A DNA stretch of 64,000 bases from Candidatus Omnitrophota bacterium (GTDB lineage: Bacteria > Omnitrophota > Gorgyraeia > Zapsychrales > JANLHA01), in NCBI GenBank assembly GCA_029560465.1, contig JAKQKX010000020.1, forward strand, positions 51,434-115,433, written 5' to 3'. Below are positions 3,691 to 20,794 of the stretch, piece after piece. Each line of letters opens with the position of its first letter. Within the stretch, counting starts at the first letter, position 1. The position numbers and the translations under genes were made by a program. The notes beneath the pieces were generated by a model that saw nothing but the letters and a program-made list of their open reading frames with translations, was not told where the DNA came from and searched no databases.

Positions 3691-4422
3691 TCAGTCTTCG
3701 GCCACATTAATAAACTTTTCCATCTCCCGGGACTGCTGGCACAAGGTGCGCAGCTCTTCCGGTGTAGCGCTGCAGACATGGTCCGGGCCGACAAGCCCTT
3801 TATTAAGGGTAAAATGCTTTTCGATGATCCTGGCCCCCCTGGCCACAGCCACCAACGCCGCCTCGATGCCGATCGTGTGGTCGCTGAACCCGTCGTAAGG
3901 GGTCGCCTTAAATGACACCGGCAGATGGATGTCCTTGTACTCCGCCGGATATTTCGCCACGCAATACAGGTATTTCGCTTTGTCATAATCATACGGGACA
4001 TCCGCGTCTTCCCAAAAGCCAAGCGAAATAAAAGACTCTTTCCCGGTCGCGAATATCTTCCGGCACAGCGCTTTCTCCTCTACCGTGCGGCTCGCGATCT
4101 TATAGCGATTGACTTTTAAATTCTCCATCCATTCAAAGCGCTCTTCGTCGAACACCGAAGCCATAAATTCGATGCCTTCTTCGTCACACCAGGTTTTAAG
4201 CCGCTTGGCCTCGTCAAACCCGAACTGCACCGTCAGGGCAAACCGGTAGTTTTCCTCGTTAGGATAGCTTCCTTGCGGCCCGAAAATTTTAGCCGGGTCG
4301 TAAAACTGGAACTTGGCGATATCAGCCCCGCACTGTTTGGCCTGCTTGATCAACTCATGGGCCAGGTGAACGCTGCCGTTATGGTTGATCCCGATTTCCG
4401 CGATGATAATCATATGCACCAC
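3691..4422 (-). CDS. NeuB-family nonulosonic acid synthase homolog, catalytic TIM-barrel domain only, lacking the C-terminal SAF domain
   Basis: IIAEIGINHNGSVHLAHELIKQAKQCGADIAKFQ matches the NeuB/PseI N-terminus. At 243 aa it is too short to include a SAF domain. Confidence 0.65.
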   Translation of the reverse strand: MVHMIIIAEIGINHNGSVHLAHELIKQAKQCGADIAKFQFYDPAKIFGPQGSYPNEENYRFALTVQFGFDEAKRLKTWCDEEGIEFMASVFDEERFEWMENLKVNRYKIASRTVEEKALCRKIFATGKESFISLGFWEDADVPYDYDKAKYLYCVAKYPAEYKDIHLPVSFKATPYDGFSDHTIGIEAALVAVARGARIIEKHFTLNKGLVGPDHVCSATPEELRTLCQQSREMEKFINVAED

Positions 4423-5250: not shown

Positions 5251-6471
5251 CTAAACATTGACTTCTCCCCACGTCCAGAAATCCCGGGCCAACATATCTC
5301 TGTCTAAATCAACATCCTTACCCACCCTGTGAATTTTAATATAATCCCCGGCCGGACGGACCTCAATCTGATTCCGGAAATAGCAATTCAGATAATAACA
5401 CATCCCTGCCGGGTCATCTTCCCGTTTATAATTCACGAAATTTTTCCTGACACGATGCATGCCGTCAAAAAACCATTTATCAAAACCCAGCCAAGTGGGG
5501 AGAAACCCCCAAATCGGCTCCAGGGCTGTTCCGGAAAAAGGGATGTCCAGAACGTCATAAAGACGGCGCGCTTCCAGTTTCGCCGAAAATTTTTCCAGGA
5601 ACGTCCGGCTGACCAAATGCTGACACGTACAACCAAACCATTCCAAAGCATTGTCTTTATGAAAAAGCACCCTGTCTTTCTCTATAAATTCCGGGATGAC
5701 TTTCCTCAAAGGACGCCGGTACGTATTTTCATAAACAACTCTTCCAAATAACGGGAATTCACCTAAATGGCGTAAAGAACGAAAACTGTAATATATCTTC
5801 TGTAATCCTGGAGTAATAACATCGGGGACATGATCTTGTGTAATAGAATGACTCTCTTTACTCCAAGCTAAGACAAGTTTTTTAAATTCTAAATCCCGAC
5901 AAAACACATCATACGCCTCTCTAATTTTTTCATCATGGTAAAAGTCCATTTCTGTCGGCGCTGGTTTTCGTGTATTATATTTAAAAAAAATCCCTTGGGG
6001 GATCCATCGTTTTTCATGTCCTGAAGAGAGGAAATGGATGTTATACCCTCTCAAAAAATCTAAGACTGCCGATAATGATTGATTACGATTTAACAATGTT
6101 CCTTCTTGAAACATGAAAACATAATCATAGGCCTCCCATTTCCTTGTACGAATAAATTTATACCACGCGCCGGAATCCAAGGCATGGTCATTTTCAAAAT
6201 GCATTTCCGTCACGGTTTTACCTTTCATCTGTCGAAGGATATTTAAAACGCGCTCATCCGCCGGGCTAAGCTGAACGTTAACCCCGTATTTTTCCGCCAA
6301 TCGAAAATATGGTGCGTAAGCAGGCTTTGCATAACATTCGCCACCCCCATTTTGAAAAAGGACAAAAATATCATAATCCTGAAAATCCTGCAAAGCCAAC
6401 GTCAACAGCGTTGACATGATAAGCCAGGGTTTATGATGACAGCATAACGCTATGGCCACGCGCGCGCTCAT
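5251..6471 (-). CDS. Hypothetical protein within the glycan locus (possible glycosyltransferase-like enzyme)
   Basis: Long ORF co-directional with its neighbours. The likely start MSARVAIALCCHH overlaps the upstream stop by 4 bp (ATGA). No motif recognised. Confidence 0.4.
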   Translation of the reverse strand: MSARVAIALCCHHKPWLIMSTLLTLALQDFQDYDIFVLFQNGGGECYAKPAYAPYFRLAEKYGVNVQLSPADERVLNILRQMKGKTVTEMHFENDHALDSGAWYKFIRTRKWEAYDYVFMFQEGTLLNRNQSLSAVLDFLRGYNIHFLSSGHEKRWIPQGIFFKYNTRKPAPTEMDFYHDEKIREAYDVFCRDLEFKKLVLAWSKESHSITQDHVPDVITPGLQKIYYSFRSLRHLGEFPLFGRVVYENTYRRPLRKVIPEFIEKDRVLFHKDNALEWFGCTCQHLVSRTFLEKFSAKLEARRLYDVLDIPFSGTALEPIWGFLPTWLGFDKWFFDGMHRVRKNFVNYKREDDPAGMCYYLNCYFRNQIEVRPAGDYIKIHRVGKDVDLDRDMLARDFWTWGEVNV

Positions 6472-7826
6472 GCGGCTTTCTCCTTTCTGGGCCTTTTCCG
6501 AACTGCGGTTTTCACCGCGTCCCAGACGCGCCGGCTGCACCGGCCGTCTCCATGCCCCATATAACTCCGGATAAATTCCTGTTTTTTTCCCCGGTTCATC
6601 TCAAACCTTTTTAAATGCATTTGCGGAAGCCGCTCAATCACATCCTCGATCTCCCAGGTCTCAATGACACCGGGGTAATTAAACTGGGAGCCTTCTTCCG
6701 CGGAAAACCAGAAGCGTTGCGCCTCATCAATAAAGAACTCCCTGGGTAAATTAATATTCAAACAGTACACCCCCGCGTAAATAGCGGTCAAAGAGGCCAG
6801 GCTGTAATACATGACGCACATACGGCTCACGGTCAGCAGTTCTTTTAATATAGGCGGGTTCTGCTGTGTTTCATCATCCCAGACAACCAGATCAGCGCAT
6901 TCCTTCACATAGTCCGCAACCGGGAATTTCATGCGCGGCTTCACCACCAGGTGCAAATTGTTCCGGCGGGAGAACCCCCGGATCGCCTGAAACACTTTCG
7001 CTTCATTCATACCCTGCGCCAAAAATCTCCGGCTTAGAGGATCCTGCATAACGCGCAACAAATTCCAACTCTTTTGTATAAAATCTTTAATAAGATAATT
7101 TTTCTTATCATGAGCATAGGAACCATCCGGGGCTGTCGCCGTATTCGCATAAAGCCCGCAGAACGCCCGCTCCCAGGCGGAGGACCGGTTCCGGTTGCAA
7201 TACGGGAACGGCAGATAAAGCAGAACATCTTTGTCCGGCGGCAGCCCGTATTTCGCCCGCACGGCGTCCGGATTAATGGTCTTAAACGCATCAAATTCCG
7301 CGTTCCCGGAGACAACGATGCGGGTATTATCCGGATAGAGATAATCCGTGTATCCCGGATGAAAATTTTTCAAAAATGCTTTTCCTTTTTCCGCGTAAAT
7401 CTCACTATAAACCAGAAACAGTTCTTTATTCCGTCGTTTCTTTAAAAACCCCAGTTTGGGTATATGAAAAAAGTTGTCCGGCCCGGTCATCAGCGTCACC
7501 CAGGTAAACGGGAATTCATCTAAAGAAGCGTCCGGGAGAGAAAACTTAGAAGGACAAATAGAGACTACTGCGTCAATCGTTTTGGCCTCACGCAATTTTT
7601 TATCCAAATCCTCCGGGCCTTCGAACATAATTCCAGTCGGCCGACATAATCCCGGAAAATCGGGAATATGTTCGATATACGGGAAAGAGAAGCTCTTTCT
7701 TCCCGTCCGGGGGGCGCTGTAATCATGCCAGCATTCCACGCTATAGCCCCGCCGTAACGCTTCCTGAATGACCGGCGTGTAATAACGGTAATAATTCGTC
7801 CTATAGACTAAAAATACGACCCGCAT
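6468..7826 (-). CDS. Putative capsule/teichoic-type glycosyl- or glycerophosphotransferase-like protein
   Basis: 452-aa soluble protein in the glycan locus with weak resemblance to the Capsule_synth / Glyphos_transf families. Assignment is by context only. Confidence 0.35.
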   Translation of the reverse strand: MRVVFLVYRTNYYRYYTPVIQEALRRGYSVECWHDYSAPRTGRKSFSFPYIEHIPDFPGLCRPTGIMFEGPEDLDKKLREAKTIDAVVSICPSKFSLPDASLDEFPFTWVTLMTGPDNFFHIPKLGFLKKRRNKELFLVYSEIYAEKGKAFLKNFHPGYTDYLYPDNTRIVVSGNAEFDAFKTINPDAVRAKYGLPPDKDVLLYLPFPYCNRNRSSAWERAFCGLYANTATAPDGSYAHDKKNYLIKDFIQKSWNLLRVMQDPLSRRFLAQGMNEAKVFQAIRGFSRRNNLHLVVKPRMKFPVADYVKECADLVVWDDETQQNPPILKELLTVSRMCVMYYSLASLTAIYAGVYCLNINLPREFFIDEAQRFWFSAEEGSQFNYPGVIETWEIEDVIERLPQMHLKRFEMNRGKKQEFIRSYMGHGDGRCSRRVWDAVKTAVRKRPRKEKAA

Positions 7827-8487
7827 GATCCCTCCACATGTTTTGCGCGATCAAAAAATCTTCTTCCGTATCGATATCGAACAATTCCAGTTTATCCTTC
7901 AACTCCACCAGTTGAACTTCCTTCCAGTCCCAGTAACGGCCATGCTGAAAAAAATAGTCTTTAGAGAAAAAATACAAGGCATGGGCGAACTCCAAAACCG
8001 GGTCCACGGTCTTGGTATTGATCGTCTGAAGCGACAAAGAAAAATTCAAAGGGTTGCGTTTCATATCGAAATAAAAATTATGGCGTTTCACGACGGCAAA
8101 CGCCGATTCCCAATTATGGTCACAGCATTGTTCCAGGAAATCCGCAATGGTTTTGACTTTTAAAAAAGGTAAACACCCGTTAATGATCAGAAAATATTGA
8201 TAAGGAAGATCCTTCAAAAACGACAGAATCTCCGTGATCGGCCCGTCGATCAGCACTGATTCCTGGCTGCGCTGGACAAATGGCACACCATGAACCCGGC
8301 ACTTATCCGCGAAATCCTGTTCATAACCGGCGAAAAACGTGTGCTCCCCCAACGCGCCCAACTTTTTCAGCATAATATCGGTGAGGGTCGTGTCCCCAAA
8401 CGGCCGGACCATTTTTTCAGGGCAGCGCTGGCTCTGTTTCCGGCCGAATGAAAAAACACCAATTTTTTGCCGCTCAACATGTGCCAT
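7801..8487 (-). CDS. Cytidylyltransferase family protein (CTP_transf_3; NeuA/KdsB/SpsF-like CMP-sugar synthetase)
   Basis: N-terminal FGRKQSQRCPEKMVRPFG resembles the AR-x-S-x-R-x-P-x-K...G motif. C-terminal FDIDTEEDF resembles the DIDTxED motif of KdsB/NeuA. Confidence 0.6.
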   Translation of the reverse strand: MAHVERQKIGVFSFGRKQSQRCPEKMVRPFGDTTLTDIMLKKLGALGEHTFFAGYEQDFADKCRVHGVPFVQRSQESVLIDGPITEILSFLKDLPYQYFLIINGCLPFLKVKTIADFLEQCCDHNWESAFAVVKRHNFYFDMKRNPLNFSLSLQTINTKTVDPVLEFAHALYFFSKDYFFQHGRYWDWKEVQLVELKDKLELFDIDTEEDFLIAQNMWRDHAGRIFSL

Positions 8488-9436
8488 TCAGGAACTCCTT
8501 AAAAGATATGTTAGGGATGCCGTCGACCGGCAGGGAATATTCAAACGGTTCATAGATATTGACAAAATTCATGCCCTGGTATTTCAGGATCTTTTCCAAA
8601 GCGGCAAACTCATGCGGCGGCCGCATGAAAGGGCGTTTATTCTCTTTAAAATTACCGCTGAAAGCCCGCCGCGCTTTTTTAAAAAATTTCCGGTAATGCG
8701 CCATGGATTTAAACGTGTAGCAAGCGGCATACTCCATGCTGCCCAGCATGGACATGTCCATCCCGAGGAAAAACACTTTATCAAAACCCATAAAATTCAG
8801 CACCGGGAACAACGCAATCGCCGAAGAATTCAGAAAACTGTAATCCTTAACGCGAGGCAGAGGCCCGCTTTCATCCAAGGCGTAATAATCCTGGAGATCA
8901 AAATCCCCGGCTGCCGGCCTGATCCCGCAGGTGTACACCGGATTGAGGCGGCAGAAGCTTTCTTTATAACTCTGGAAATTATCTTCTAAAGCCAGGCACG
9001 CTGTTTCCGGGAACCGGGATAACAATTCCAGCGGAGAATCCCGCAGGAACACGTCCGTCTTATAACGGAACCTCTTATGCACGCCGCGGTCCGGCCGGAA
9101 AGCCTCAAAGAACATCCGGAAGTTCTCTTTCAGGTACCGGTACTCGTCTTGGTATTCGTCCCGGATAAGGTCGGTTAAATCAATATCCGCCAAGAACGAT
9201 TGAAACACCACATGCTGAAACGCGTTGGATTTGCATTTTTCCAGATAAAACATAAGGTAAAAATCCGGCATCAAGTTCGCCTTCACAAAATACGGGGTCA
9301 GGGCCTTGCTTTCCAAAAACACCGTGACACGCCTGCGGTCAATACGTTCCAGAGGCACCCGGTTTTCAATGATCGAGGGGCCGCCGAGGATCACCAGCGC
9401 GTCGCGGCCGGCATAAGCGTTCTTTAATCGTTTCAT
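8474..9436 (-). CDS. DUF115 (MptE-like) protein, motility-accessory-factor (Maf)-like putative nonulosonic acid transferase
   Basis: ALVILGGPS-type motif near the N-terminus and a size of 320 aa. Position immediately downstream of pseI, as in Campylobacter/Helicobacter flagellin glycosylation loci. Confidence 0.5.
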   Translation of the reverse strand: MKRLKNAYAGRDALVILGGPSIIENRVPLERIDRRRVTVFLESKALTPYFVKANLMPDFYLMFYLEKCKSNAFQHVVFQSFLADIDLTDLIRDEYQDEYRYLKENFRMFFEAFRPDRGVHKRFRYKTDVFLRDSPLELLSRFPETACLALEDNFQSYKESFCRLNPVYTCGIRPAAGDFDLQDYYALDESGPLPRVKDYSFLNSSAIALFPVLNFMGFDKVFFLGMDMSMLGSMEYAACYTFKSMAHYRKFFKKARRAFSGNFKENKRPFMRPPHEFAALEKILKYQGMNFVNIYEPFEYSLPVDGIPNISFKEFLNGTC

Positions 9437-10485
9437 GACCCAGCGACCAGTTCCTTGGATAAAGGGGTGCCGCGGCGGATATCTTTCACCGCATGCCGCC
9501 CCATCACCTTACGCAGTTCTTTCGGCGGCAGCCCATAAGCCGGACGGATCGAGCGGATATTGTCAGCCGTGAATCGCTCGCCTCGTTTGATGTCCGCCAC
9601 AGCAAATAGGGACCGGCGGAACACCCGGCTCTTTCTTTCATTCTCAGTTTTAACATACGTCGCCGTCCCCAAAGCTTGTTCCGTAATCCGGATATTGTCA
9701 ACCAGCCTCTTAAACTCCCGCGGTTCCGTCGAAAAAAAGCTGTCCGGCGTTTTGTGCTTCCGGGTCAAGGTGAAATGTTTTTCGATCATGACCGCGCCCA
9801 GGCATACGGCAGCCACAGACGCGGCTAAAGTCAGAGTGTGATCCGAAAGCCCCACCGGCGCACGGAAACGCTTGGACATGTCCGGGATGACCTTCAAATT
9901 CATCTCCTGCGGTTGCGCCGGATAATTGCTCACGCATTTAAATAAAAGGATGTCTCGGGCCCCTCCCCGCCGGGCGGCCGTGACCGCGTCCTGAATCTCT
10001 TCCTTCTCCGCCATCCCTGTTGACAGGATAAGCGGTTTCCCGGTCCGGGCGGCGTGCGTGATCAAAGGGGTATCCACCAACTCAAAAGACGCGATTTTGT
10101 GTACCGGCACGTTAAGCGTTTCCAGGAAATCAACGGATGAGGCGTCAAATGCGGTCGCAAAAAACCCGAGGCCGACATCGTCCGCCACCGCTTTCAATTT
10201 TCTCAGCCAAGGCCAGGGGGTATACGCTTTTTGATAAAGCTGATACAGGGTCTGGCCGCCCCACTCTGGGTGGCGGATACGGAAATATTTATTACGGGCG
10301 TCAATCGTCATCGTGTCAGGAGTGTACGCCTGAAACTTAACCGCGTCCGCCCCGCATTCTTTCGCTTTGCGGATCATGGCCACCGCGCGCGGAAAACTTT
10401 GCCCGTGGTTCGCGGAAATCTCGGCGACGACATACACGGGGTATTGCCCCCCCACCAGCCTGTCCCCGATTTTAAACGATTTCAT
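9433..10485 (-). CDS. pseI: Pseudaminic acid synthase (NeuB family with SAF domain)
   Basis: VVAEISANHGQSF...AVKFQ NeuB motif; full length 350 aa with a C-terminal SAF-like region; located in the pse cluster. Confidence 0.85.
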   Translation of the reverse strand: MKSFKIGDRLVGGQYPVYVVAEISANHGQSFPRAVAMIRKAKECGADAVKFQAYTPDTMTIDARNKYFRIRHPEWGGQTLYQLYQKAYTPWPWLRKLKAVADDVGLGFFATAFDASSVDFLETLNVPVHKIASFELVDTPLITHAARTGKPLILSTGMAEKEEIQDAVTAARRGGARDILLFKCVSNYPAQPQEMNLKVIPDMSKRFRAPVGLSDHTLTLAASVAAVCLGAVMIEKHFTLTRKHKTPDSFFSTEPREFKRLVDNIRITEQALGTATYVKTENERKSRVFRRSLFAVADIKRGERFTADNIRSIRPAYGLPPKELRKVMGRHAVKDIRRGTPLSKELVAGS

Positions 10486-10497
10486 ATAATCCTTTCC

Positions 10498-10959
10498 TTA
10501 GAAATCATCCGGATACCGATACGTTAACACATCTTTGTCCTCGGAAAAACGCCGGTACCCGGCTTTCGCAAACGCCTTGACCGACGCCAGGTTCCCTTTA
10601 ATGATCCTGGCGATGACCGTGATCGCCCCGATCTCCTTCAAGAACTGTTCTGTCCCGGCCCGGATGACACGGGACCCAAGCCCCTGCCCCATGCAGGCGG
10701 GGTTGAGATGAACGCTCACCTGCGCGCCATCCCCTTCCGCCTCGAAGCGGATCACGCCCACTTTCTCCTCTCCCCGGCGGGCGATGTAAATCCGGCAACG
10801 GGAATCGGATATTTTCCGTTCAAACCACCGCTGATGCTCATCCCAGGGGACTACGGCGGTGTTAAAAAAATTTTTGCGGATGTCCGGGTGGTTACGCCAC
10901 TCCCAGATATCCCGCATATCCTCTTCCCAGGCCAAAGATACAACAATGTCTTCCTTCAT
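10498..10959 (-). CDS. pseH: GNAT N-acetyltransferase, likely UDP-4-amino-4,6-dideoxy-N-acetyl-beta-L-altrosamine N-acetyltransferase
   Basis: GNAT fold with the Q/R-x-x-G-x-G/A-like segment GQGLGSRVI. The start was trimmed to MKEDIVV so that it overlaps the PIG-L stop by 4 bp. Confidence 0.6.
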   Translation of the reverse strand: MKEDIVVSLAWEEDMRDIWEWRNHPDIRKNFFNTAVVPWDEHQRWFERKISDSRCRIYIARRGEEKVGVIRFEAEGDGAQVSVHLNPACMGQGLGSRVIRAGTEQFLKEIGAITVIARIIKGNLASVKAFAKAGYRRFSEDKDVLTYRYPDDF

Positions 10960-11636
10960 CGGATCGCCCTCACCACCTGAAAAGCTTCCGCGTACGCGCA
11001 ACCAGAGACGCTCCCCCACCGTTGCGCGATGGCCAATAAACTCTTTGCCGAACGGGGATGCGGCGCTGGCCGCATTTCCGAGCGGTAACACCGCATCGCC
11101 TTTATTTTCTGCACGATCGTCTCCTCAACATCAATATAAAGCGTCGGGTCAAAAGTCCGGGGATATGCCCATTCCGACGAGGACGGCACTTCAAACGCGT
11201 AAATTTCCCTGACCGGCTCTCCCTTCATGGGCCGGCAGGCGGTCATCACCGCGTTATACGTGATGCGGTGATCAATATTCAAATCACCCCAGTGATGCGT
11301 CAACACCGTGTCGGGCCGGACCTGCCGTTTGATCTCTTCCAGACGCTGGACAATTTCCAAAAGGGAAACCGTGTCCAGTTTGTTATCAGGAAGGTCAAGC
11401 TGATGCACGTCCTTCACGCCTAAGACCTGGTTGGCGGCCGTCATCTGCTCTTTCAATTTTTTCTTTTCGCGATCCTGTCTCCCGGAAGCGCCGTCGCTGT
11501 AACGCGCGGTCACCCCTTCTCCCAATATGACCGTCGCCACACTGTGCCCTTCTTTGACAAAACGGGCGACCGCCGCCCCGCACCCCAACACCTCATCATC
11601 CGGATGAGCCGCGACGACTAAAATTTTTTTCTTCAT
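10956..11636 (-). CDS. PIG-L/LmbE family N-acetyl-sugar deacetylase
   Basis: ILVVAAHPDDEVLG is the canonical HPDDE zinc-binding motif. Confidence 0.8.
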   Translation of the reverse strand: MKKKILVVAAHPDDEVLGCGAAVARFVKEGHSVATVILGEGVTARYSDGASGRQDREKKKLKEQMTAANQVLGVKDVHQLDLPDNKLDTVSLLEIVQRLEEIKRQVRPDTVLTHHWGDLNIDHRITYNAVMTACRPMKGEPVREIYAFEVPSSSEWAYPRTFDPTLYIDVEETIVQKIKAMRCYRSEMRPAPHPRSAKSLLAIAQRWGSVSGCAYAEAFQVVRAIR

Positions 11637-12328
11637 GCCGTCTCCTTTGGACAGATTTCAACCCGCGCGGTGAGCCGCCGGCCTTTCCTCTCTGCCGCAA
11701 AAAATTCAAACCGTAACGCCTTCGTTTCCAAAAACGCGCGGGGGTAACTTTCCGCGTCCAGCATGCGGATCCTGTCATACGCTTCCGGCACGGAAGAGAC
11801 AGAAACAAGGTCGCTCTCTTCGGGCGTCCTCCGCCGGAAAACGACCGCCGCCCCCTTCTGGGGCCGGGGGGTTATCGCGCCGTGAACAATCGCGGGCATC
11901 ATACGCCCGAAAATAACGGCCGCGGCCCGCCGGTAAATTTCCCCAGCCGACCCCCGCAAAGACAACGCGCGCTTCAAGTACACAGGTCCGGCGTCAAATT
12001 CTTCCGTGACCCTGATCGCGGTAATTTTTGTCGACCGGTGTCCCCGGACAATCAAATTCTGCAACGGGCTCCCGCCCCGGCCGTAAGGCAAATCCGTCAT
12101 GTGAAAAGCAACGCACGGGTACGCCGCATAGATATCCGGCGGGATTTTCCAGGACCAATGCGGAAAAAATATAAAATCCGGGTTATACTTTTTGACCGGC
12201 GCGAGGCGTAAATGGTCCCTATTCAGAATCAGGCGCACGGAAACGCACGGATTGTGTTTCCGGAAATCCCGTGCCGCCGCGATATTCCAAGTCTTAACCG
12301 TCGCGATGATAATCTTTTTCTTTTTCAT
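11633..12328 (-). CDS. Formyltransferase-domain protein (Fmt/PurN-like sugar N-formyltransferase)
   Basis: HMTDLPYGRGGSPLQNLI matches the formyl_trans_N H-x-S-L-P-x-x-RG motif. Start taken at MKKKKIIIA. Confidence 0.7.
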   Translation of the reverse strand: MKKKKIIIATVKTWNIAAARDFRKHNPCVSVRLILNRDHLRLAPVKKYNPDFIFFPHWSWKIPPDIYAAYPCVAFHMTDLPYGRGGSPLQNLIVRGHRSTKITAIRVTEEFDAGPVYLKRALSLRGSAGEIYRRAAAVIFGRMMPAIVHGAITPRPQKGAAVVFRRRTPEESDLVSVSSVPEAYDRIRMLDAESYPRAFLETKALRFEFFAAERKGRRLTARVEICPKETA

Positions 12329-13344
12329 AAAGCCACTCGGGGCTGCGCCGCCCCGGCGTTCACCACAGCATCCACGATCCGGAACGCTCCCTGGCCGTCC
12401 ACACAAGCCTTGCCGGTCTTAGCCAAGCCCTGGCGCAACCCTTTATCGTGATATTTTTTCAAGCCCGCCCGCAGGTTAACGAACACCTCCGGGGCTTCGA
12501 TTCTCCCGCAAAACTCAATCATCCCTTTATGCTGAAGCCCGCGGACGTTCGCGGACTGATTATCAGCCACGCAAACGGCCAAAGTCGGGACCCCGCACCG
12601 GGCCAACTCATACAGGGTTTGGCCGCCCGCCGACACCGCCAAATCCGCTTCCAGCATGCGGGCCTTCATCTGTTGGGCGTCCAGGGCCGCGACAAATTCG
12701 GTTCGCTCGTCCGCCTGCTCAAGCAACGCGGCGTCAGGCCCGCAGCCATGCCCTAAAATAACCGTCTTCTTCACAGCGGGGTATTCCGCTTTTATCGCCT
12801 GATAACACAGCGGCGTGGCCTGTTTCATATCGCTGCCGCCCATCGTTAATAAAATATTCTCAACGCTTTCGCGCACAGGTCTTTGGGGAACCGCCCAAAA
12901 CACCGAACGCAAAGGCATGTATTGTTCACCGAGAAGATAAACCGTCCCCTCCCGGGATGGGTATAAAAACTGTTCCGGACAGGCCGTGGCGTTGACGACA
13001 AACCCCGGAGGATAAAGCAAACGTTTATAATCATCCAGATAAACAACGGACCGGGCAGCTCCTGACACGGCGAGGTAAACAGGCTCCGGCGCCCAATAAG
13101 AATCGATCACAACGGCATCGAGACCCGAAGCCAAAAGGTTGTTTAAACACCCGTTTTCAAACCAGCAAAAAACGTCACTGGCCATGCCTTTTGTGAACGC
13201 GGCCGCTGATCCGTCCCCGTTAATAACCATGCGCGGGGTAAAATCCCGGGACTCAAAAGCCTGATACAACGCCGTGCACCGGGCGAGATGCCCGAATCCG
13301 AACCTTTTTCCCCCTTCGGTGAGGATCAGGACATCACGTTTCAT
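12325..13344 (-). CDS. pseG: UDP-2,4-diacetamido-2,4,6-trideoxy-beta-L-altropyranose hydrolase (MurG-like fold)
   Basis: N-terminal LILTEGGKRFGFGHLARCTALYQ matches the PseG GxGHxxRC motif. Length is 339 aa. Confidence 0.75.
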   Translation of the reverse strand: MKRDVLILTEGGKRFGFGHLARCTALYQAFESRDFTPRMVINGDGSAAAFTKGMASDVFCWFENGCLNNLLASGLDAVVIDSYWAPEPVYLAVSGAARSVVYLDDYKRLLYPPGFVVNATACPEQFLYPSREGTVYLLGEQYMPLRSVFWAVPQRPVRESVENILLTMGGSDMKQATPLCYQAIKAEYPAVKKTVILGHGCGPDAALLEQADERTEFVAALDAQQMKARMLEADLAVSAGGQTLYELARCGVPTLAVCVADNQSANVRGLQHKGMIEFCGRIEAPEVFVNLRAGLKKYHDKGLRQGLAKTGKACVDGQGAFRIVDAVVNAGAAQPRVAL

Positions 13345-14073
13345 TTATAGACTCGCCTCGAGGGCCGCCTGATATTTCATATAAAATTCCGCCTTGAGAA
13401 AATCCTGTTCATGATCAATTTCCGTGGCATAGCGCTCATCATGAACAAGAAGCGCCACCCGGTCTCCCATGTAAGCGTGCACTTTCAAGACCCCGGCCGC
13501 CGCCAGCAAGGGACCTCTTCTTAAAACAATGACCGCCCCATCCAACAAATACAGCGTGGGCAAATCCTGCATCCGGAAAGCATGGGCCGATGGTATAAAA
13601 GGGCGGATCAACCCGCTTTCGGGGTCCAGGATTTTCATCCATTCCGGCCGCTGATCAATCGCGTAGGCGGTCGCCACCGCCGTGCCATCCTCACGGGACA
13701 CCAGTTTTTGCACCGCCTCATCGATCTCCCCATCCTTGCGGATGGGGACATTCGCCTGAAGGGCCACGACAATATCAAAAGTTTTTCCACCCGCCTCTTC
13801 TTCCGCCTGTAAGGCGTGGCGCAAAGCGTCGTCGAACGGGGATGTGTCCCGGGCCAACTCCGCCGGACGCATGATCACCTCCGCGCCATACCTTCCGGCA
13901 ACGGCGCCAATCTCATCATTATCAGTGGACACAACGACCTTATTGCAAAGCCGGCTCTTCAACGCCATCTCGACCGTATAAGCAATAAGAGGCTTGCCGC
14001 AGAGGTCCCGCACATGCTTCATCGGCGCGCGCCGGCTTCCGCCCCTGGCGGGGATCACGCATAGCACATTCAT
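13345..14073 (-). CDS. pseF: Pseudaminic acid cytidylyltransferase (CMP-Pse synthetase)
   Basis: MNVLCVIPARGGSRRAPMKHVRDLCGKPLIAYT is a CTP_transf_3 N-terminus. Confidence 0.8.
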   Translation of the reverse strand: MNVLCVIPARGGSRRAPMKHVRDLCGKPLIAYTVEMALKSRLCNKVVVSTDNDEIGAVAGRYGAEVIMRPAELARDTSPFDDALRHALQAEEEAGGKTFDIVVALQANVPIRKDGEIDEAVQKLVSREDGTAVATAYAIDQRPEWMKILDPESGLIRPFIPSAHAFRMQDLPTLYLLDGAVIVLRRGPLLAAAGVLKVHAYMGDRVALLVHDERYATEIDHEQDFLKAEFYMKYQAALEASL

Positions 14074-14089
14074 GAAATCTCCCTTATTT

Positions 14090-15247
14090 TCATGCCAACA
14101 CCTTGATTAACGTTTGCACAACATGCCGCACGTCGCATTTACGCAACTGCGGATAAAGCGGCAGGGTCATGGCCCGCTCATAATACTGCTCCGCAAAAGG
14201 GAACTGCCCGCGCCGGTAACCAAACCGCTTCTGGTAATACGGCTGAAGGTGAATCGGTATATAATGGACCTGCGGGAGAATCCCCTCCCGCAGCAACGCC
14301 TGAAACGTCCTGTCTCTTAACGCCGCGTCTTTAAACTGGATCACAAAAATATGCCATGCGGCCTTCACGTCTTTCTTTTCCACCGGGAGAATAAAACGCG
14401 AATCTTGCGCCAGCAAAGCATGATACGTCTCCACGTGCGTTCTGCGCTGGTCAAGAAACCGGTCCAGTTTTCTCAACTGGGAAACCCCCAACGCGCACTG
14501 CAGATCGGTGATCCGGTAGTTATACCCCAGGACCGGCATCTCGTAATACCACGGCCCGTCGTTCCTGGTTAATAAACGCGGGGTTTTCGTCATCCCGTGC
14601 GTGCGGAAAATCTGCAGCCGCTCATAAAGGTCTTTACGGTTCGTCAGGATGGCCCCGCCTTCTCCGGTCGTGATGTTCTTCACCGGGTGAAAACTGAACA
14701 CGGTCATATCCGAATACGCGCCGCCGCCGATTTTTTTCCCGCGGTATTCCGCCCCCAGCGCATGACAGGCGTCTTCGATCACCAGAAGCTTACGCTTCCG
14801 GGCGATACGCCGGATCGCCGCCATATCAGCGGGGTGCCCGGCGAAATGCACCGGGATCAGCGCCTTGGTCCTGGCGCTGATCTTTTTTTCGATCGCCGCA
14901 GGATCTATATTCACCGTCTCCTCATCAATATCCGCGAACACCGGCGTCCCTCCGCAGTACACGACACAGTTCGCCGAGGCCAAAAATGTCACCGGAGATG
15001 TGATGACTTCGTCTCCCGGAGCGATCCCCGCGGCCAGGCAGGCCATGTGAAGCGCCGCGGTCCCGTTCGACACGGCCACCGCGTATTTCGCGCCGGTGTA
15101 CCGGCACAGGGCCTCTTCAAACTCCCTGATCTTCGGCCCCTGGGACAGCCAGTCCGAACGGAGCACATCCGTGACCGCTTTGATGTCGTCCTTGGTGATC
15201 GTCTGCCGACCGTAAGAAATTTTGCGTTTCCTCATCATCTTAACCAT
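14090..15247 (-). CDS. pseC: DegT/DnrJ/EryC1 PLP-dependent aminotransferase (UDP-4-keto-6-deoxy-AltNAc aminotransferase)
   Basis: Strong similarity to sugar aminotransferases: GPKIREFEE, AVSNGTAALH, SFHPVKNITTGEGG. Confidence 0.85.
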   Translation of the reverse strand: MVKMMRKRKISYGRQTITKDDIKAVTDVLRSDWLSQGPKIREFEEALCRYTGAKYAVAVSNGTAALHMACLAAGIAPGDEVITSPVTFLASANCVVYCGGTPVFADIDEETVNIDPAAIEKKISARTKALIPVHFAGHPADMAAIRRIARKRKLLVIEDACHALGAEYRGKKIGGGAYSDMTVFSFHPVKNITTGEGGAILTNRKDLYERLQIFRTHGMTKTPRLLTRNDGPWYYEMPVLGYNYRITDLQCALGVSQLRKLDRFLDQRRTHVETYHALLAQDSRFILPVEKKDVKAAWHIFVIQFKDAALRDRTFQALLREGILPQVHYIPIHLQPYYQKRFGYRRGQFPFAEQYYERAMTLPLYPQLRKCDVRHVVQTLIKVLA

Positions 15248-15249
15248 GG

Positions 15250-16695
15250 TTATTTCTTCACATACTCCTTAAATTTCTTAATGACGCCCCATTCCGTCAC
15301 CGCGCGGTAAACCCGCATCAACCGGTAAGAGCAATGCAGCCGGGAGACAAAACATCTGGCCAGCAATTTCCAGAGCGGGCGGTGGCCTTTGTAGACATAA
15401 TAATCAAACCACACGAAATAATGCATCAATCTCCGCCGGGGCAATCCCTTTAAATTCAGGACCGGCCGGGAACGTTCCCGCTCGACATCGAGCCGTTGGG
15501 GCAAAAGCTTCATCTCGCGGCACACCCGGTGGATTTCAGTGCCGGGATACGGGAAAAAGATGGAATGCGAAGGCCACATGTCCGGCTGGCAGGCGCGGTT
15601 GACCGCGATCGTCTGACGGACATCTTCCTCGGTTTCCGTGGGCAGGCCGATCATGTTCAAAAAATGCACTTTGAGCCTGTTCTCCCGGGCCAAGGACGCT
15701 GTGCGGATGATATCGTCATTCGAATAATGCCGTTTCATAATTTCCCGGCGGATGCGTTCGCTCCCCGACTCCACACCCACATTAATAAACGTAAAACCGC
15801 TCCCCCTCATGGCGGCAAACAGCGGGCCGAAATCCGTGTTCGGCGTGACCCGGATATTCACCCCGAAATCCAGCGGCACCGCCCGTTGGCTGTTAAAGGC
15901 CGCCAATTGTCGGCACAAATCCAGGGCCCAAGGCATATTCACGTTAAACGTCTCGACTTCAAAATACACCTCCCGCACAGACGGTTGCTGTTCCGTGATG
16001 TCCTGAAGCTCGGCGATAATGTTGCCGGCGGAACGGCAACGCACATACGCGCCTGAAGCGAGCTTCTTCAGGGCATGATTGGAACAGTACGTGCATTGAA
16101 ACGGGCACCCACGCCCCAACAAGACCGCCGGACGGCTGTCTAAATCCAGGGTCCAGGGCCGCCACATCTCCCGGTCCGGGAAAGGGAGCTCATCAAGGTT
16201 CTCCCAAAACGGCCGCAAACGGTTCTTTTCAACCTTGCCGTTACGGTTAAACCAAAAGTTCTCAATTCCAGACGGTGAACGGCCGCCCTCCAGTCTCTCA
16301 ACCAGTTCCAGGGTCGGGTATTCCCCTTCCCCCAGGCAAACGGCGTCCAGATCCGTCCCCAGCCCGTCTTCCGGGTTCAAAGAAAGATGGCACCCTCCCC
16401 CCAGAAGAAAAATCTGGGGGAATTCCGCCTTTATATTTTTTATCCAGCGGGTGATAAAAAAGAATTCGCTCGTGACCGCGGAAAAACACAGGACCGCCGG
16501 CTTAAAATCGTTGATAAAAGCCCGGAACGCGTCCATCCGCGTATCTTTCGTCAACACAAACAATGTCGTGCGGTGCCCGTGCTTCTTTAACAGCGCCGAA
16601 ATGTAGGAAATCCCGAAATTCATTTCTTCCTGGTACTGAAGCGGTTTTTCAGGAGAAAACACATTCTGGGACGAAAAAACAAACGCGATATTCAT
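15250..16695 (-). CDS. B12-binding-domain radical SAM enzyme
   Basis: N-terminal Rossmann-like cobalamin-binding domain; CxxxCxxC cluster GRGCPFQCTYCSN. Length is 481 aa. Confidence 0.8.
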   Translation of the reverse strand: MNIAFVFSSQNVFSPEKPLQYQEEMNFGISYISALLKKHGHRTTLFVLTKDTRMDAFRAFINDFKPAVLCFSAVTSEFFFITRWIKNIKAEFPQIFLLGGGCHLSLNPEDGLGTDLDAVCLGEGEYPTLELVERLEGGRSPSGIENFWFNRNGKVEKNRLRPFWENLDELPFPDREMWRPWTLDLDSRPAVLLGRGCPFQCTYCSNHALKKLASGAYVRCRSAGNIIAELQDITEQQPSVREVYFEVETFNVNMPWALDLCRQLAAFNSQRAVPLDFGVNIRVTPNTDFGPLFAAMRGSGFTFINVGVESGSERIRREIMKRHYSNDDIIRTASLARENRLKVHFLNMIGLPTETEEDVRQTIAVNRACQPDMWPSHSIFFPYPGTEIHRVCREMKLLPQRLDVERERSRPVLNLKGLPRRRLMHYFVWFDYYVYKGHRPLWKLLARCFVSRLHCSYRLMRVYRAVTEWGVIKKFKEYVKK

Positions 16696-16710: not shown

Positions 16711-17694
16711 TCAAAGGCCGGCAATGACCCGCTTTAATTGTTCAACCGTGAGCCACTGCTGGTTCGTGTCGCTGGTGTAAGCGAACCCCTCCGGGACAGA
16801 CGACAATTTATCATACTGGCAGTGAACCTCCTGTGTGTCAAAAAACTGCGGAAGAATGACATAATTGTCCCCGTCGATTTTCGTGTTACGGGATTCATCC
16901 CCGGAAATCAAGGTTTCATGGACTTTCTCCCCCGGGCGGATGCCGATTATTTTAAACGTGCAGTCCGGCTCGATGGCCCGGGCCAGATCAACGATCTTCA
17001 TGGAGGGAACCCGGGGGATAAAGACCTCCCCCCCTTCGGAAGTATCCAGGGCCTTGATAACAAGCTGGACGCACTGATCCAGCGTGATCCAGAAGCGGGT
17101 CATCCTTTCATCGGTGAGAGGAAACTCCCGGCATTTTTTGCTTTTCAAATTCAGGAACAACGGGATCACGCTCCCCCGGGACCCCATCACGTTCCCGTAA
17201 CGGACCGCGGAAAACTTGACCCTCCCGCCGGCGAAAGCGTTGGCGGCGATGAAAATTTTCTCCGCGACCAGCTTCGTCGCTCCGTAAAGGTTGACCGGGT
17301 TCACGGCCTTGTCGGTGGACAGCGCGACCACTTTTTTGACCCTGGCGTCAATCGCCGCGTTGACGATATTGTCGGCGCCGATGACGTTGGTCTTCACCGC
17401 TTCCGTCGGATTATATTCCAACGCCGGGACCTGCTTGAGCGCCGCGGCATGAACCACGTAATCGACCCCTTCGAAAGCCCGGTAAAGCCGGTCGCGGTCG
17501 CGGATGTCTCCGAGAAAATAACGGACCGGGTATTTCCGGTCCGGGAAAACCCGGGACATCTCGAACTGTTTAAACTCGTCCCGGCTGAAAATAATAAGCT
17601 TCTTCAACTGATATTTATTCAAAAGGACTTCTGTGAATTTCTTCCCGAACGACCCTGTCCCGCCGGTCACCAGCACCACTTTTTGATTCAACAT
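16711..17694 (-). CDS. pseB: UDP-N-acetylglucosamine 4,6-dehydratase (inverting)
   Basis: VLVTGGTGSFGKKF plus a CapD/FlaA1-like body. Start taken at MLNQKVV. Confidence 0.85.
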   Translation of the reverse strand: MLNQKVVLVTGGTGSFGKKFTEVLLNKYQLKKLIIFSRDEFKQFEMSRVFPDRKYPVRYFLGDIRDRDRLYRAFEGVDYVVHAAALKQVPALEYNPTEAVKTNVIGADNIVNAAIDARVKKVVALSTDKAVNPVNLYGATKLVAEKIFIAANAFAGGRVKFSAVRYGNVMGSRGSVIPLFLNLKSKKCREFPLTDERMTRFWITLDQCVQLVIKALDTSEGGEVFIPRVPSMKIVDLARAIEPDCTFKIIGIRPGEKVHETLISGDESRNTKIDGDNYVILPQFFDTQEVHCQYDKLSSVPEGFAYTSDTNQQWLTVEQLKRVIAGL

Positions 17695-18696: not shown

Positions 18697-19248
18697 CTAT
18701 AAATGAATCTCCCGGGCCAGGGTTTCGAACACATTGACCCTCTTGCCGGCCAGCCATCCCGGAGGTTCCGCTTGCGGACGGCAGATAAAAAGCACCCCGT
18801 CCTCCAGGTCTTCCCGCTCCTCGTCAGAAAGAATCCGAAACCGGCAGCCCTGAAATTCCTCTTCCTTAAAAACCGACTGAACGAGCCAAGACACCTCCTC
18901 ATCCCCGCAAGCCCAGAAATCCCGTTCCCCGCTGCGGTAAAAACCGCGCACAATGTCCCGGATCGTCTGCTTATACCGCTTGATAGACCGAATCGTCTCC
19001 AGCGTGCAATGCCTGGATTTCTCCAACCGCTCGGACAAGCCTTTCGGCGTTAGCGTGTATTCAATTTTTCTTTTCGTGACTTGGCGAATATGAATATACC
19101 CCTGCTCAACAAGACGGCGCAGGAGCATATGGGTTGCCCCTAGAGATATGTTCAAATGACGGGAGAAGTCCCTCTGGCTGGCGGCACATTCCGCCCCAAT
19201 GATATTGATGAGCTCGGCTTCTTTTGTGTTCAGGGTATCTTTGATCAC
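18697..19248 (-). CDS. Winged helix-turn-helix transcriptional regulator (MarR/PadR-like N-terminal domain)
   Basis: N-terminal ELINIIGAECAASQRDFSRHLNISLGATHMLLRRLVEQGYI is an HTH plus wing. Preceded by its own AT-rich promoter region. Confidence 0.55.
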   Translation of the reverse strand: MIKDTLNTKEAELINIIGAECAASQRDFSRHLNISLGATHMLLRRLVEQGYIHIRQVTKRKIEYTLTPKGLSERLEKSRHCTLETIRSIKRYKQTIRDIVRGFYRSGERDFWACGDEEVSWLVQSVFKEEEFQGCRFRILSDEEREDLEDGVLFICRPQAEPPGWLAGKRVNVFETLAREIHL

Positions 19249-19384: not shown

Positions 19385-20794
19385 CTAACGGAATTTTATT
19401 TTCTTCATGGCAAAGAAACACATTTTAAAAAGCAATAAGCCGTGGCGGAAACGCTGAATCTGGGTTGTGCCATACGTTCTTTCCTTGTAACGGATCGGTA
19501 ACTCCAGGACTTTCAGGTTCAGCTTGACCGCTCCGAAGATAAGATCAAAATCGCCGAAAGGATCAAACGGGCCGAAATAGCCCCGATTAACGGCCAGTTC
19601 CTCATAATCACGCTTAAACAGCACTTTGGTCCCGCACAGGGTGTCTTTGAAACGCTGGCCCAAAAGCCAGCTGAAGAAAACCCCAAAAAACTTATTGGCA
19701 AGAAGATTAAGGAACCGCATGGCCTGCTTCTCCATGGGATAAACCAGCCGGCATCCGTTAATAAATTCCCCCCGGTTATGGCGGATCGCATCATAAAATT
19801 TAGGCAGGTCTTCCGGAGGAACGGTTAAATCCGCATCCAGGATCATCAGCACCTCTCCGGAAGCCCGGCTGAAACCCAGCCGCACGGCATCGCCCTTCCC
19901 CTTTCCCGTCTGCTTCAAAAGCTTTATGTCCTTCTCTGGATATCGCTGAATAACCCGCTCCACCTCTTCATAAGTGCCGTCTTGGGATCCGCCTTCGACA
20001 AAAATAAATTCCTGATGAAGCCCGAAGGCAGGGGTACGCAAAATCGCCTGTTCAATGTTCCCCTTCTCATTCCGGCAAGGAACCAAGACCGTGACGGAGA
20101 ACTCCCTTTCAAATTCAAAAACCGGCCGGGCGATCACGATATGGTTTAACGTGAGCGCGTTAAAAACCGGCAACGGTGCTATAAAACGGTTGATGACGTA
20201 ACTCAAGCCCCAGACCTGCAGCGGGAACAAAATAGCCCTCTCGGTTTTAACCGGCTCGTACCCCGTCAGGGTTAGAAAATTGCACAGGTCGTGGTATGTC
20301 AGCCAATTCTGAATTTTCTGCTTTATCTTTAACCCGGCTTTTTCCCCAAATTGAAGGATGGTCTGCCAGAGGTAACTGTAATATTCGACAATAATCCGCG
20401 TGTGCGCATGACAGAACGGCCTAAGGTCAGCCAGAAACAGCTGAATATCATCCAATTCCCCCAGCAAACCCGACAACACGATAAAATCAAATTTATCCGG
20501 ACACGAAAAATCTTTTAAAGCACAACATTCGAATCTTAATTGCGGGTATTTCCGCGCCGCGATTTCAACCGAACGGCCGCTGACATCAATCCCAACGCCG
20601 ACGGACGGTTTCAGTTCGTTCAAAAGGCCGCCGGTCGAGCAGCCGACTTCCAGGACCTTCTTCCCCTCCGGGATCAGGTAACGGTATTGTTTATAAAGCA
20701 ATTTATAATAATAACGGTTTTTCTCCAGGAAGCGGTCGCGCCGGTCAGCCAAATGGTCATAATGTTCAGCAATCGAATTAAGGGCGGTCGTCAT
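19385..20794 (-). CDS. Bifunctional class I SAM methyltransferase / family 2 glycosyltransferase (DPM1-like) fusion
   Basis: N-terminus has [15 protein letters not shown] (MTase motif I). C-terminus has [15 protein letters not shown]...LMILDADLT, the DxD of a GT2. Confidence 0.7.

Follow-up and report, generated by a model that had tools for sequence, protein, structure and literature searches.

Pseudaminic and legionaminic acids (Pse and Leg) decorate flagella, pili, capsules and S-layers, and the N-acyl groups of these nonulosonates set antigenicity, charge and phage recognition. Because hexose C2 becomes C5 of Pse and hexose C4 becomes C7, the acetyl group of GlcNAc ends on N5, while the amine introduced by PseC becomes N7. 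Variation at N7 is known and results from PseH, PseJ or another enzyme working on the free 4-amine, which PseH and PseJ acylate directly; only a change at N5 needs a prior deacetylase. The N5 group originates in the acetyl of UDP-GlcNAc, but products such as Pse5Hb7Fo, 5-N-formyl-Leg and nonulosonates with a free amine exist. Here, we analyze two coupled genes, encoding a formyltransferase-like protein (FT) and a PIG-L/LmbE-family deacetylase (PIG-L), in a 64,000-nucleotide stretch of a Candidatus Omnitrophota genome (contig JAKQKX010000020.1, positions 51,434 to 115,433; hereafter the window). Judging from sequence comparisons, the two proteins most likely swap one N-acetyl group of Pse for an N-formyl group.

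Among described enzymes, PseJ of Anoxybacillus kamchatkensis is a UDP-4-amino-4,6-dideoxy-L-AltNAc N-formyltransferase, characterized in 2018 (Reimer et al. 2018, cited in PMC11040635), and no other Pse formyltransferase is known to be biochemically characterized. PseJ and the window FT are both formyltransferase-superfamily proteins encoded in Pse clusters, and PseJ changes the N-acyl pattern of Pse, as we propose for FT. However, PseJ replaces PseH and works without a deacetylase, whereas FT coexists with PseH (a GNAT is present in 62 of 80 related loci) and is always accompanied by PIG-L. PseJ (PDB entries 6CI2 and 6CI4) gave no match to the window FT at E up to 1, or to the profile of its family at E up to 10; as a control, the canonical formyltransferase of one of the related loci (L055) does match PseJ, with an E-value of 2.4e-20. 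The window pair is a member of a very widespread and mis-annotated module, distinct from the known PseJ route. An earlier description of this DNA, made without database searches (hereafter the sequence-only reading), considered the enzymology of formylated Pse poorly defined. This is outdated for 7-N-formyl Pse, for which PseJ has been characterized (cited in PMC11040635), but it still applies to N5 acyl exchange.

Other anchors come from organisms in which formylated nonulosonates have been detected. Candidatus Kuenenia stuttgartiensis makes CMP-nonulosonates with one formyl group, one free amine and no acetyl group, and its cluster KSMBR1_RS09820-09860 encodes a PIG-L protein, a WbqC protein and a "formyltransferase family protein" but no GNAT (SugarBase, bioRxiv 10.64898/2026.04.20.719630). 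The idea of a deacetylase and a formyltransferase acting in a nonulosonate cluster has thus already been voiced for one organism in this 2026 preprint. As in the window, PIG-L is paired with a formyltransferase, and both are flanked by the dehydratase/aminotransferase genes on one side and by NeuB on the other; the order in Kuenenia is, however, PIG-L, WbqC, FT, with no GNAT and with the free amine kept, whereas the window has FT, PIG-L and GNAT. Halorubrum sp. PV6 carries 5-N-formyl-legionaminic acid, and a formyltransferase gene of about 317 codons is predicted in its Leg cluster (PMC6137143). These anchors, whose formyltransferases are placed by annotation, show that N-formyl nonulosonates, one of them N5-formylated, exist where PIG-L and formyltransferase genes co-occur. 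In the literature searched on the Pse5Hb7Fo genes of P. aeruginosa O7/O8 and on clostridial flagellar glycosylation islands, the FT-PIG-L pair was not met.

An archaeal Leg-type cluster with two formyltransferase-like proteins was also observed on the Halorussus caseinilyticus plasmid NZ_CP119810 (L165, 5676-10584). It encodes neuC, PIG-L, neuB, a 314-aa "methionyl-tRNA formyltransferase" with Gly at the Asn site, and a separate canonical formyltransferase with the NLH motif. Its PIG-L is 41% identical to that of the window (E 2e-50) and belongs to the same subfamily. The annotation as a Met-tRNA formyltransferase is almost certainly wrong here, because archaea do not use formylmethionine.

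In the window, positions 10956-12328 contain exactly two genes, both on the minus strand, FT followed by PIG-L (Table 1). The ATGA overlap that couples them recurs on either side of the pair, between the PseG-like gene and FT (12325-12328) and between PIG-L and a PseH-like GNAT gene (10956-10959), so that 4-base overlaps chain four genes. The list of open reading frames (ORFs) offers a longer, TTG-initiated version of FT that reaches 12406; the ATG at 12328 is nevertheless the supported start, because homologues begin with MKKKKIIIAT and a 99%-identical database protein has 231 residues. The nearest relatives of FT, at 84-85% identity, are found in metagenome-assembled genomes (MAGs) of Candidatus Omnitrophota. 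The sequence-only reading had placed here a deacetylase with an HPDDE motif, translationally coupled to a formyltransferase-like protein between pseH and pseG. The pair is real, with matching coordinates and 4-base overlap; it lies between the PseG-like and PseH-like genes, and HPDDE occupies residues 11-15 of PIG-L (AAHPDDEVLG). The six canonical types of enzyme for CMP-pseudaminic acid (PseB, C, H, G, I and F) are all encoded together in the window. Since the canonical route to CMP-Pse5Ac7Ac is therefore complete without FT and PIG-L, both are add-on tailoring genes.

FT belongs to the 1ZGH family and is short, its two domains being a reduced Formyl_trans_N core and a Formyl_trans_C_2 domain. 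Its best structure match is 1ZGH (E 2.8e-66, residues 5-226), with FMT, ArnA and HypX as further relatives in the PDB. In Pfam, the Formyl_trans_C_2 domain (PF21553) is matched with an E-value of 6.9e-17, and Formyl_trans_N (PF00551) with 29.4 bits against a cutoff of 26.1, over profile positions 74-155 only. The earlier description as a formyl_trans_N-domain protein is borne out by this partial match and has to be extended by the Formyl_trans_C_2 domain and the membership in the 1ZGH family. The 1ZGH protein, presumably from Clostridium thermocellum, shares the FFPHWSW and FHMTDLPxGRGGSPLQNLI motifs with the window FT and has Val at the site of the canonical Asn. It is a structural-genomics entry named "methionyl-tRNA formyltransferase", a name against which the fmt score of the window FT speaks, and a literature search did not find a functional paper on this structure.

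Residues His76 and Asp112 of FT align with the catalytic His and Asp of B. anthracis FMT and ArnA. The sequence-only reading had named the loss of these residues as an argument against formyl transfer; a residue census found both kept in 81 of 81 family members. The canonical Asn, two residues before the His, is replaced by Ala74. The family has further invariant residues of its own, namely W14-N15, H57-W58-S59 (within FFPHWSW), T78-D79, Q90-N91 and R166-R167, and the FHMTDLPxGRGGSPLQNLI motif is invariant. With the canonical Asn missing, formyl transfer by this family is plausible but not certain.

The second protein of the pair matches PF02585 over its full length (E 2.4e-27, profile positions 1-129 of 129) and shows the motifs AHPDDE (AAHPDDE at residues 9-15), H114, D118, N120, D122-H123 and PHxRS. 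Residues H11, D13, D14 and H123 align with the zinc ligands and the catalytic Asp of MshB and BshB, and all of H11, D13, D14, D122-H123, H114, D118, N120 and the C-terminal PHxRS are invariant in 74 sequences of the subfamily. An Asn (N120) takes the place of the first HxDH His in 74/74 of them. With its metal-binding and catalytic residues intact, the deacetylase of the sequence-only reading stands, and PIG-L appears to be an active zinc amidohydrolase that belongs to a subfamily of its own. Among solved structures, diacetylchitobiose deacetylases (Dac), TT1542 and BshB are nearest to it. An identity as BshB, MshB or Mca was rejected, as PIG-L scores below the respective cutoffs (84.5 vs 182.5 for BshB1, 60.3 vs 195.25 for BshB2, 36.1 vs 224.35 for MshB, and likewise for Mca).

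PIG-L enzymes deacetylate 2-acetamido sugars and thereby enable their re-acylation, as do MshB, BshB and the teicoplanin enzymes Orf2*/Dbv21. The window PIG-L has its fold and metal positions (AHPDD and the second His of HxDH) in common with MshB, BshB1/2, Dac and Dbv21/Orf2*. The logic of MshB, BshB and Dbv21, which is to take the acetyl off a 2-acetamido sugar so that another group can be put on, is proposed likewise for the window protein, but it would act on a nonulosonate or a 2,4-diamino-trideoxyhexose rather than on the GlcNAc-Ins or GlcNAc-malate of MshB and BshB.

To follow the pair across genomes, we scanned one genome per species with FT as the seed, which revealed a relative in at least 581 species, and analyzed the best 80 loci (L001-L080). 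These cover Lachnospiraceae, Clostridium, Planctomycetota, Patescibacteria, Omnitrophota, Helicobacter, Sulfurimonas, Treponema, Thermotogaceae, Terriglobia, Aquificaceae and one archaeon; the family as a whole also occurs in cyanobacteria, gut Lachnospiraceae and bacteria of the candidate phyla radiation. When the window proteins were searched against all ORFs of the 80 loci, 75 proved to have PIG-L on the same strand as FT and immediately downstream of it. Of the remaining five, three (L039, L056, L070) are cut off by the end of the contig within 0.4 kb past FT, and two (L042, L004) have an assembly gap or a frameshift in the FT region. The stop of FT overlaps the start of PIG-L in 44 of 74 pairs, mostly by 4 bases, and a further 14 pairs are spaced within 20 nt. 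Because the pairing recurs in so many loci from different species, it is far beyond chance. The context is that of Pse synthesis: PseI occurs in 73 of these 80 loci, and for PseB and PseC the count is 56-59. A cultured and annotated example is the plasmid AP017960 of Picosynechococcus sp. NIES-970, with PseB, PseC, PseF, PseG, a small transferase, a "methionyl-tRNA formyltransferase", an "LmbE-like protein" and NeuB.

The reverse test, a metagenome scan seeded by the PIG-L subfamily, gave 80 loci at 40-54% identity, 61 of them with enough upstream sequence. A 1ZGH-type FT lies directly upstream of PIG-L in only 18 of these 61, which rules out an obligate two-way pair. A NeuB/PseI synthase is nevertheless encoded in 57 of the 80 PIG-L-seeded loci. 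Where FT is missing, the place directly upstream of PIG-L is frequently taken by a methyltransferase, an ATP-grasp enzyme or a WbqC-like protein. The dependence is strictly one-way: FT was not found without PIG-L, while PIG-L often occurs without FT. PIG-L is a general deacetylase of nonulosonate clusters with several alternative partners. That FT needs PIG-L and not the reverse is most simply explained if the amine set free by PIG-L is what FT uses.

WbqC-like ORFs adjoin PIG-L on its upstream side in six of the loci without FT (for example L114, 5144-5878), and in L080 such an ORF (9093-9971) is inserted between PseG and the 1ZGH-type FT. These loci mirror the Kuenenia order of PIG-L, WbqC and FT.

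The genes beside the pair and the fusions of FT bear on which nitrogen is involved. In the 80 FT-seeded loci, the third acylating gene is a PseH-like GNAT (62 loci), a paralogue of FT that we call FT2 (7), a sugar formyltransferase with the canonical N-x-H motif and kinship to PseJ and VioF (3; L006, L026, L055) or an ATP-grasp enzyme (3). The GNAT count is that of an iterated search; single-sequence phmmer detected 50/80 and missed a Pfam-confirmed GNAT in L002/L082. A third acylating gene that varies while FT and PIG-L stay constant fits the behavior of an N4-acylation slot. An exhaustive HMMER search of 1.84 billion representative proteins returned 3,817 representatives of FT with E-values of at most 1e-3; at a limit of 1e-30, the number is 279. 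Architectures, confirmed with Pfam, were counted in the best 150 of the 3,817. Stand-alone FT accounts for 108 of the 150, GNAT::FT for 26, PseG::GNAT::FT and FT::GNAT for 3 each, FT::FT for 2 and an FT/PIG-L read-through for 1, the last 7 being other or unresolved (GNAT-GNAT-FT, or FT with an unassigned extension). Fusions of PseG with PseH are a feature of canonical Pse clusters. In PseG::GNAT::FT proteins, FT is added to this architecture, and it is therefore tied to the UDP-sugar stage. The fusions also suggest that the GNAT could keep the PseH role at N4 while FT would serve another nitrogen.

The FT2 paralogues (Table 1) are shorter than FT, carry the motif HNLVVHESxLPxGKGWxP without the canonical Asn, and have a C-terminal region related to that of FT (FNLLRIVxNExFPAFF). 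The PseH-like GNAT is absent from five of the seven FT2 loci and present in L045 and L047, and FT2::FT fusions exist (P0126). In three further loci without a GNAT (L021, L025, L035), the region at about 12-14 kb of each contains the pair together with a short PseB-like short-chain dehydrogenase/reductase, a metallophosphoesterase and an ATP-grasp ligase. This conserved trio may point to a nonulosonate with amino-acyl or carboxyl-acyl substituents.

We propose the following order of events. PseB and PseC would make the UDP-4-amino sugar, whose N4 (N7 of Pse) would be acetylated by the PseH-like GNAT. The PIG-L zinc hydrolase would then strip the N-acetyl group that the sugar carries at C2 from UDP-GlcNAc (N5 of Pse), and the FT-like enzyme would put a formyl group on the freed amine, with N10-formyl-tetrahydrofolate as the presumed donor. 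After PseG, PseI and PseF, the product would be CMP-Pse5Fo7Ac. We give this precise scheme about an even chance of being right; its formyl donor, its nitrogen and the stage at which FT and PIG-L would act (UDP-sugar, free hexose, Pse or CMP-Pse) are what we infer from the comparisons above. The sequence-only reading had envisaged deacetylation followed by N-formylation, giving 7-N-formyl or 5-N-formyl Pse. Comparative genomics backs deacetylation and re-acylation of the same nitrogen, although with the canonical Asn absent the new group is not assured to be formyl. Between the two positions, the GlcNAc-derived N5 is favored, as a PseH-like N4 acetyltransferase is present and often fused to FT.

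Several points weigh against this scheme. At the Asn site, the 81 family sequences have Val (69), Ala (5), Ile (3), Gly (2), Cys (1) or Leu (1), and none has Asn. The N-terminal part of the Formyl_trans_N domain is reduced, so that folate use is not assured, and the family is biochemically uncharacterized throughout. The GNAT of the window scores below the PseH equivalog cutoff and so may acylate the other nitrogen. The Kuenenia enzyme is a "formyltransferase family protein" by annotation and may belong to a family other than that of the 1ZGH-type FT. The gene order, FT then PIG-L, is the reverse of the proposed reaction order, which is a weak argument. Finally, we know of no report of Pse5Fo7Ac, for which no exhaustive search was made.

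The strongest competitor, which we consider plausible but unlikely, has the opposite regiochemistry. FT would formylate the PseC-derived 4-amine, as PseJ does, giving a 7-N-formyl group, and PIG-L would free N5. The N5 amine would either stay free or be re-acylated by the neighboring GNAT, FT2 or ATP-grasp enzyme, and products such as Pse5N7Fo or Pse5(acyl)7Fo would arise, the Pse5Hb7Fo of P. aeruginosa O7 being of this kind. The order FT then PIG-L fits this sequence of reactions, and the variable third enzyme may equally represent a slot for N5 re-acylation. It would also suit Kuenenia, where the cluster has no GNAT, the product combines one formyl group with one free amine, and the FT is labelled "legH/fmt" in the preprint; in addition, by our own reasoning, a free 4-amino aldose after PseG would be chemically awkward. 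However, it leaves the one-way dependence of FT on PIG-L unexplained, since an N4 formyltransferase should need PseC only. In the three loci where a canonical PseJ/VioF-like enzyme lies beside the pair, it would imply two N4 enzymes. The PseG::GNAT::FT fusions retain the classical PseG-PseH architecture, and the closest solved relative of the window GNAT is PseH itself, both of which count against this alternative.

A further alternative, rather improbable in our view, is that FT uses another acyl or one-carbon donor on the amine made by PIG-L, or that it is a non-catalytic partner of the deacetylase. It would account for the family-wide lack of the canonical Asn, the family's own set of invariant residues and the reduced N-domain, in an uncharacterized family for which 1ZGH is the only structure and no functional paper was found. 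However, strict conservation covers the His and Asp, the residues that matter most in formyl transfer, as well as the HxxxLPxxRGxxP loop. Purifying conservation of this strength speaks against a non-catalytic role, and formylated nonulosonates have been seen where PIG-L and a "formyltransferase family protein" co-occur.

Much less probable still is a transient protection as in the ArnA/ArnD system, in which FT would formylate the new 4-amine and thereby pull the PseC equilibrium, and PIG-L would deformylate it later, leaving no formyl group in the final sugar. ArnA is a sugar-nucleotide N-formyltransferase paired with a hydrolase, and it is a sequence relative of FT (E about 5e-10), among its closest characterized ones. 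The requirement of FT for PIG-L and the gene order FT then PIG-L would also fit. However, ArnA has the full Asn-His-Asp triad whereas FT is without the Asn, and ArnD, which deformylates Ara4N after the transient formylation by ArnA, is of a different fold family than PIG-L. PseH in the same operon already traps the amine; the PIG-L subfamily is common without FT, so that its primary substrate cannot be the FT product; and in Kuenenia it is the formyl group that persists and the acetyl that disappears.

That FT is a true methionyl-tRNA formyltransferase lying beside sugar genes by chance, as its name in public records and in PDB entry 1ZGH would have it, is next to impossible given its TIGR00460 score of 36.5 bits against a cutoff of 201.5, its length of 231 aa against about 315 aa, its different small C-terminal domain (PF21553 instead of the fmt C-domain), its location within Pse clusters in 73/80 loci, its fusions to PseH and PseG, and its presence in archaeal MAGs.

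Around the pair, the operon and its neighborhood are as listed in Table 1. The PseF-, PseG- and PseH-like proteins have those models as their best matches, yet all three score below the equivalog cutoffs; for the PseH-like GNAT, the score against TIGR03585 (PseH) is 69.4 bits, under the cutoff of 93.1, and among solved structures it matches C. jejuni PseH best (4XPK, E 1.4e-10). The radical SAM gene is inserted between PseB and PseC, and its product does not reach the cutoff of any NCBIfam equivalog. Radical SAM genes like it are present in a part of the related Pse loci (L003, L028, L051). The window gene may encode a C-methylase or another nonulosonate tailoring enzyme.

Table 1. Coordinates of the FT-PIG-L pair, of the surrounding Pse operon, of neighboring genes and of genes in related loci.
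Feature	Sequence	Coordinates	Strand	Remarks
FT-like protein	window	11633..12328	-	231 aa; ATG start at 12328, TGA at 11635-11633
PIG-L/LmbE-family zinc deacetylase	window	10956..11636	-	226 aa; Pfam PF02585
ATGA shared by FT stop and PIG-L start	window	11633..11636	-	read off the sequence; translational coupling
PseB-like UDP-GlcNAc 4,6-dehydratase	window	16711..17694	-	Polysacc_synt_2, E 2.6e-98
B12-binding radical SAM enzyme	window	15250..16695	-	481 aa; PF04055 and PF02310
PseC aminotransferase	window	14090..15247	-	TIGR03588, 507 bits vs cutoff 423.5, above
PseF-like CMP-nonulosonate synthetase	window	13345..14073	-	CTP_transf_3; TIGR03584, 120 bits vs cutoff 205.7, below
PseG-like UDP-sugar hydrolase	window	12325..13344	-	339 aa; TIGR03590, 122 bits vs cutoff 153.55, below; Glyco_tran_28_C
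PseH-like GNAT N-acetyltransferase	window	10498..10959	-	153 aa; ATG at 10959; Pfam Acetyltransf_3; TIGR03585
PseI pseudaminic acid synthase	window	9433..10485	-	TIGR03586, 448 bits vs cutoff 340.25, above
Second NeuB-family gene	window	3691..4422	-	about 240 aa; no SAF domain; PF03102, E 4.7e-50
Two large proteins	window	5251..7826	-	452 aa and about 407-429 aa; no Pfam match
Second cytidylyltransferase-like gene	window	7801..8487		
MptE-like/DUF115 protein	window	8474..9436	-	320 aa; weak match only, E 0.0035
Winged-helix/MarR-like protein	window	18697..19248	-	
Methyltransferase-glycosyltransferase fusion	window	19385..20794	-	469 aa; N-terminal SAM methyltransferase, C-terminal family-2 glycosyltransferase
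Winged-helix/MarR-like homologue	L011	4283-4861		Omnitrophota genome
FT2 paralogue	L028	11342-12013		adjoins FT-PIG-L pair
FT2 paralogue	L031	6589-7260		adjoins FT-PIG-L pair
FT2 paralogue	L033	8290-8952		adjoins FT-PIG-L pair
FT2 paralogue	L045	12035-12715		adjoins FT-PIG-L pair
FT2 paralogue	L047	11932-13716		adjoins FT-PIG-L pair
FT2 paralogue	L068	8276-8941		adjoins FT-PIG-L pair
FT2 paralogue	L075	9354-9995		adjoins FT-PIG-L pair

Downstream in the same strand block lies a second, short gene of the NeuB family, separate from the full-length PseI. Candidates for the nonulosonate transferase and for additional tailoring enzymes are two large proteins and a 320-aa protein with a weak MptE-like/DUF115 match, whose gene overlaps that of a second cytidylyltransferase-like protein. 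A winged-helix/MarR-like protein is encoded upstream of the Pse operon, and a homologue with a similar N-terminal sequence is located directly upstream of PseB in an Omnitrophota genome (L011), which suggests that it may be a conserved regulator of the cluster. A fusion of a methyltransferase and a glycosyltransferase is also found upstream of the cluster, amid epimerase and dehydratase genes.

As a type of system, the FT-PIG-L module is by itself no great surprise. It provides, however, a concrete and widely conserved candidate for N5 exchange, consisting of a deacetylase and a dedicated re-acylating enzyme. N5 acyl diversity becomes directly testable, as a crystal structure of the family (1ZGH) and cultured carriers exist, among them Picosynechococcus sp. 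NIES-970 with its plasmid, Clostridium sporogenes and Lachnospiraceae. The assignment would also correct a systematic mis-annotation as "methionyl-tRNA formyltransferase", archaea included. Extending the proposal to the whole 1ZGH-type family, we think it possible, with a likelihood somewhat short of even, that its members in at least 581 species form an Asn-less, PIG-L-dependent class that re-acylates N5 of nonulosonic acids, giving Pse5Fo7Ac or, should the donor be something other than formyl-THF, a different N5 substituent. If true, this N5-re-acylating class would be a general route for the N5 diversity of pseudaminic and legionaminic acids.

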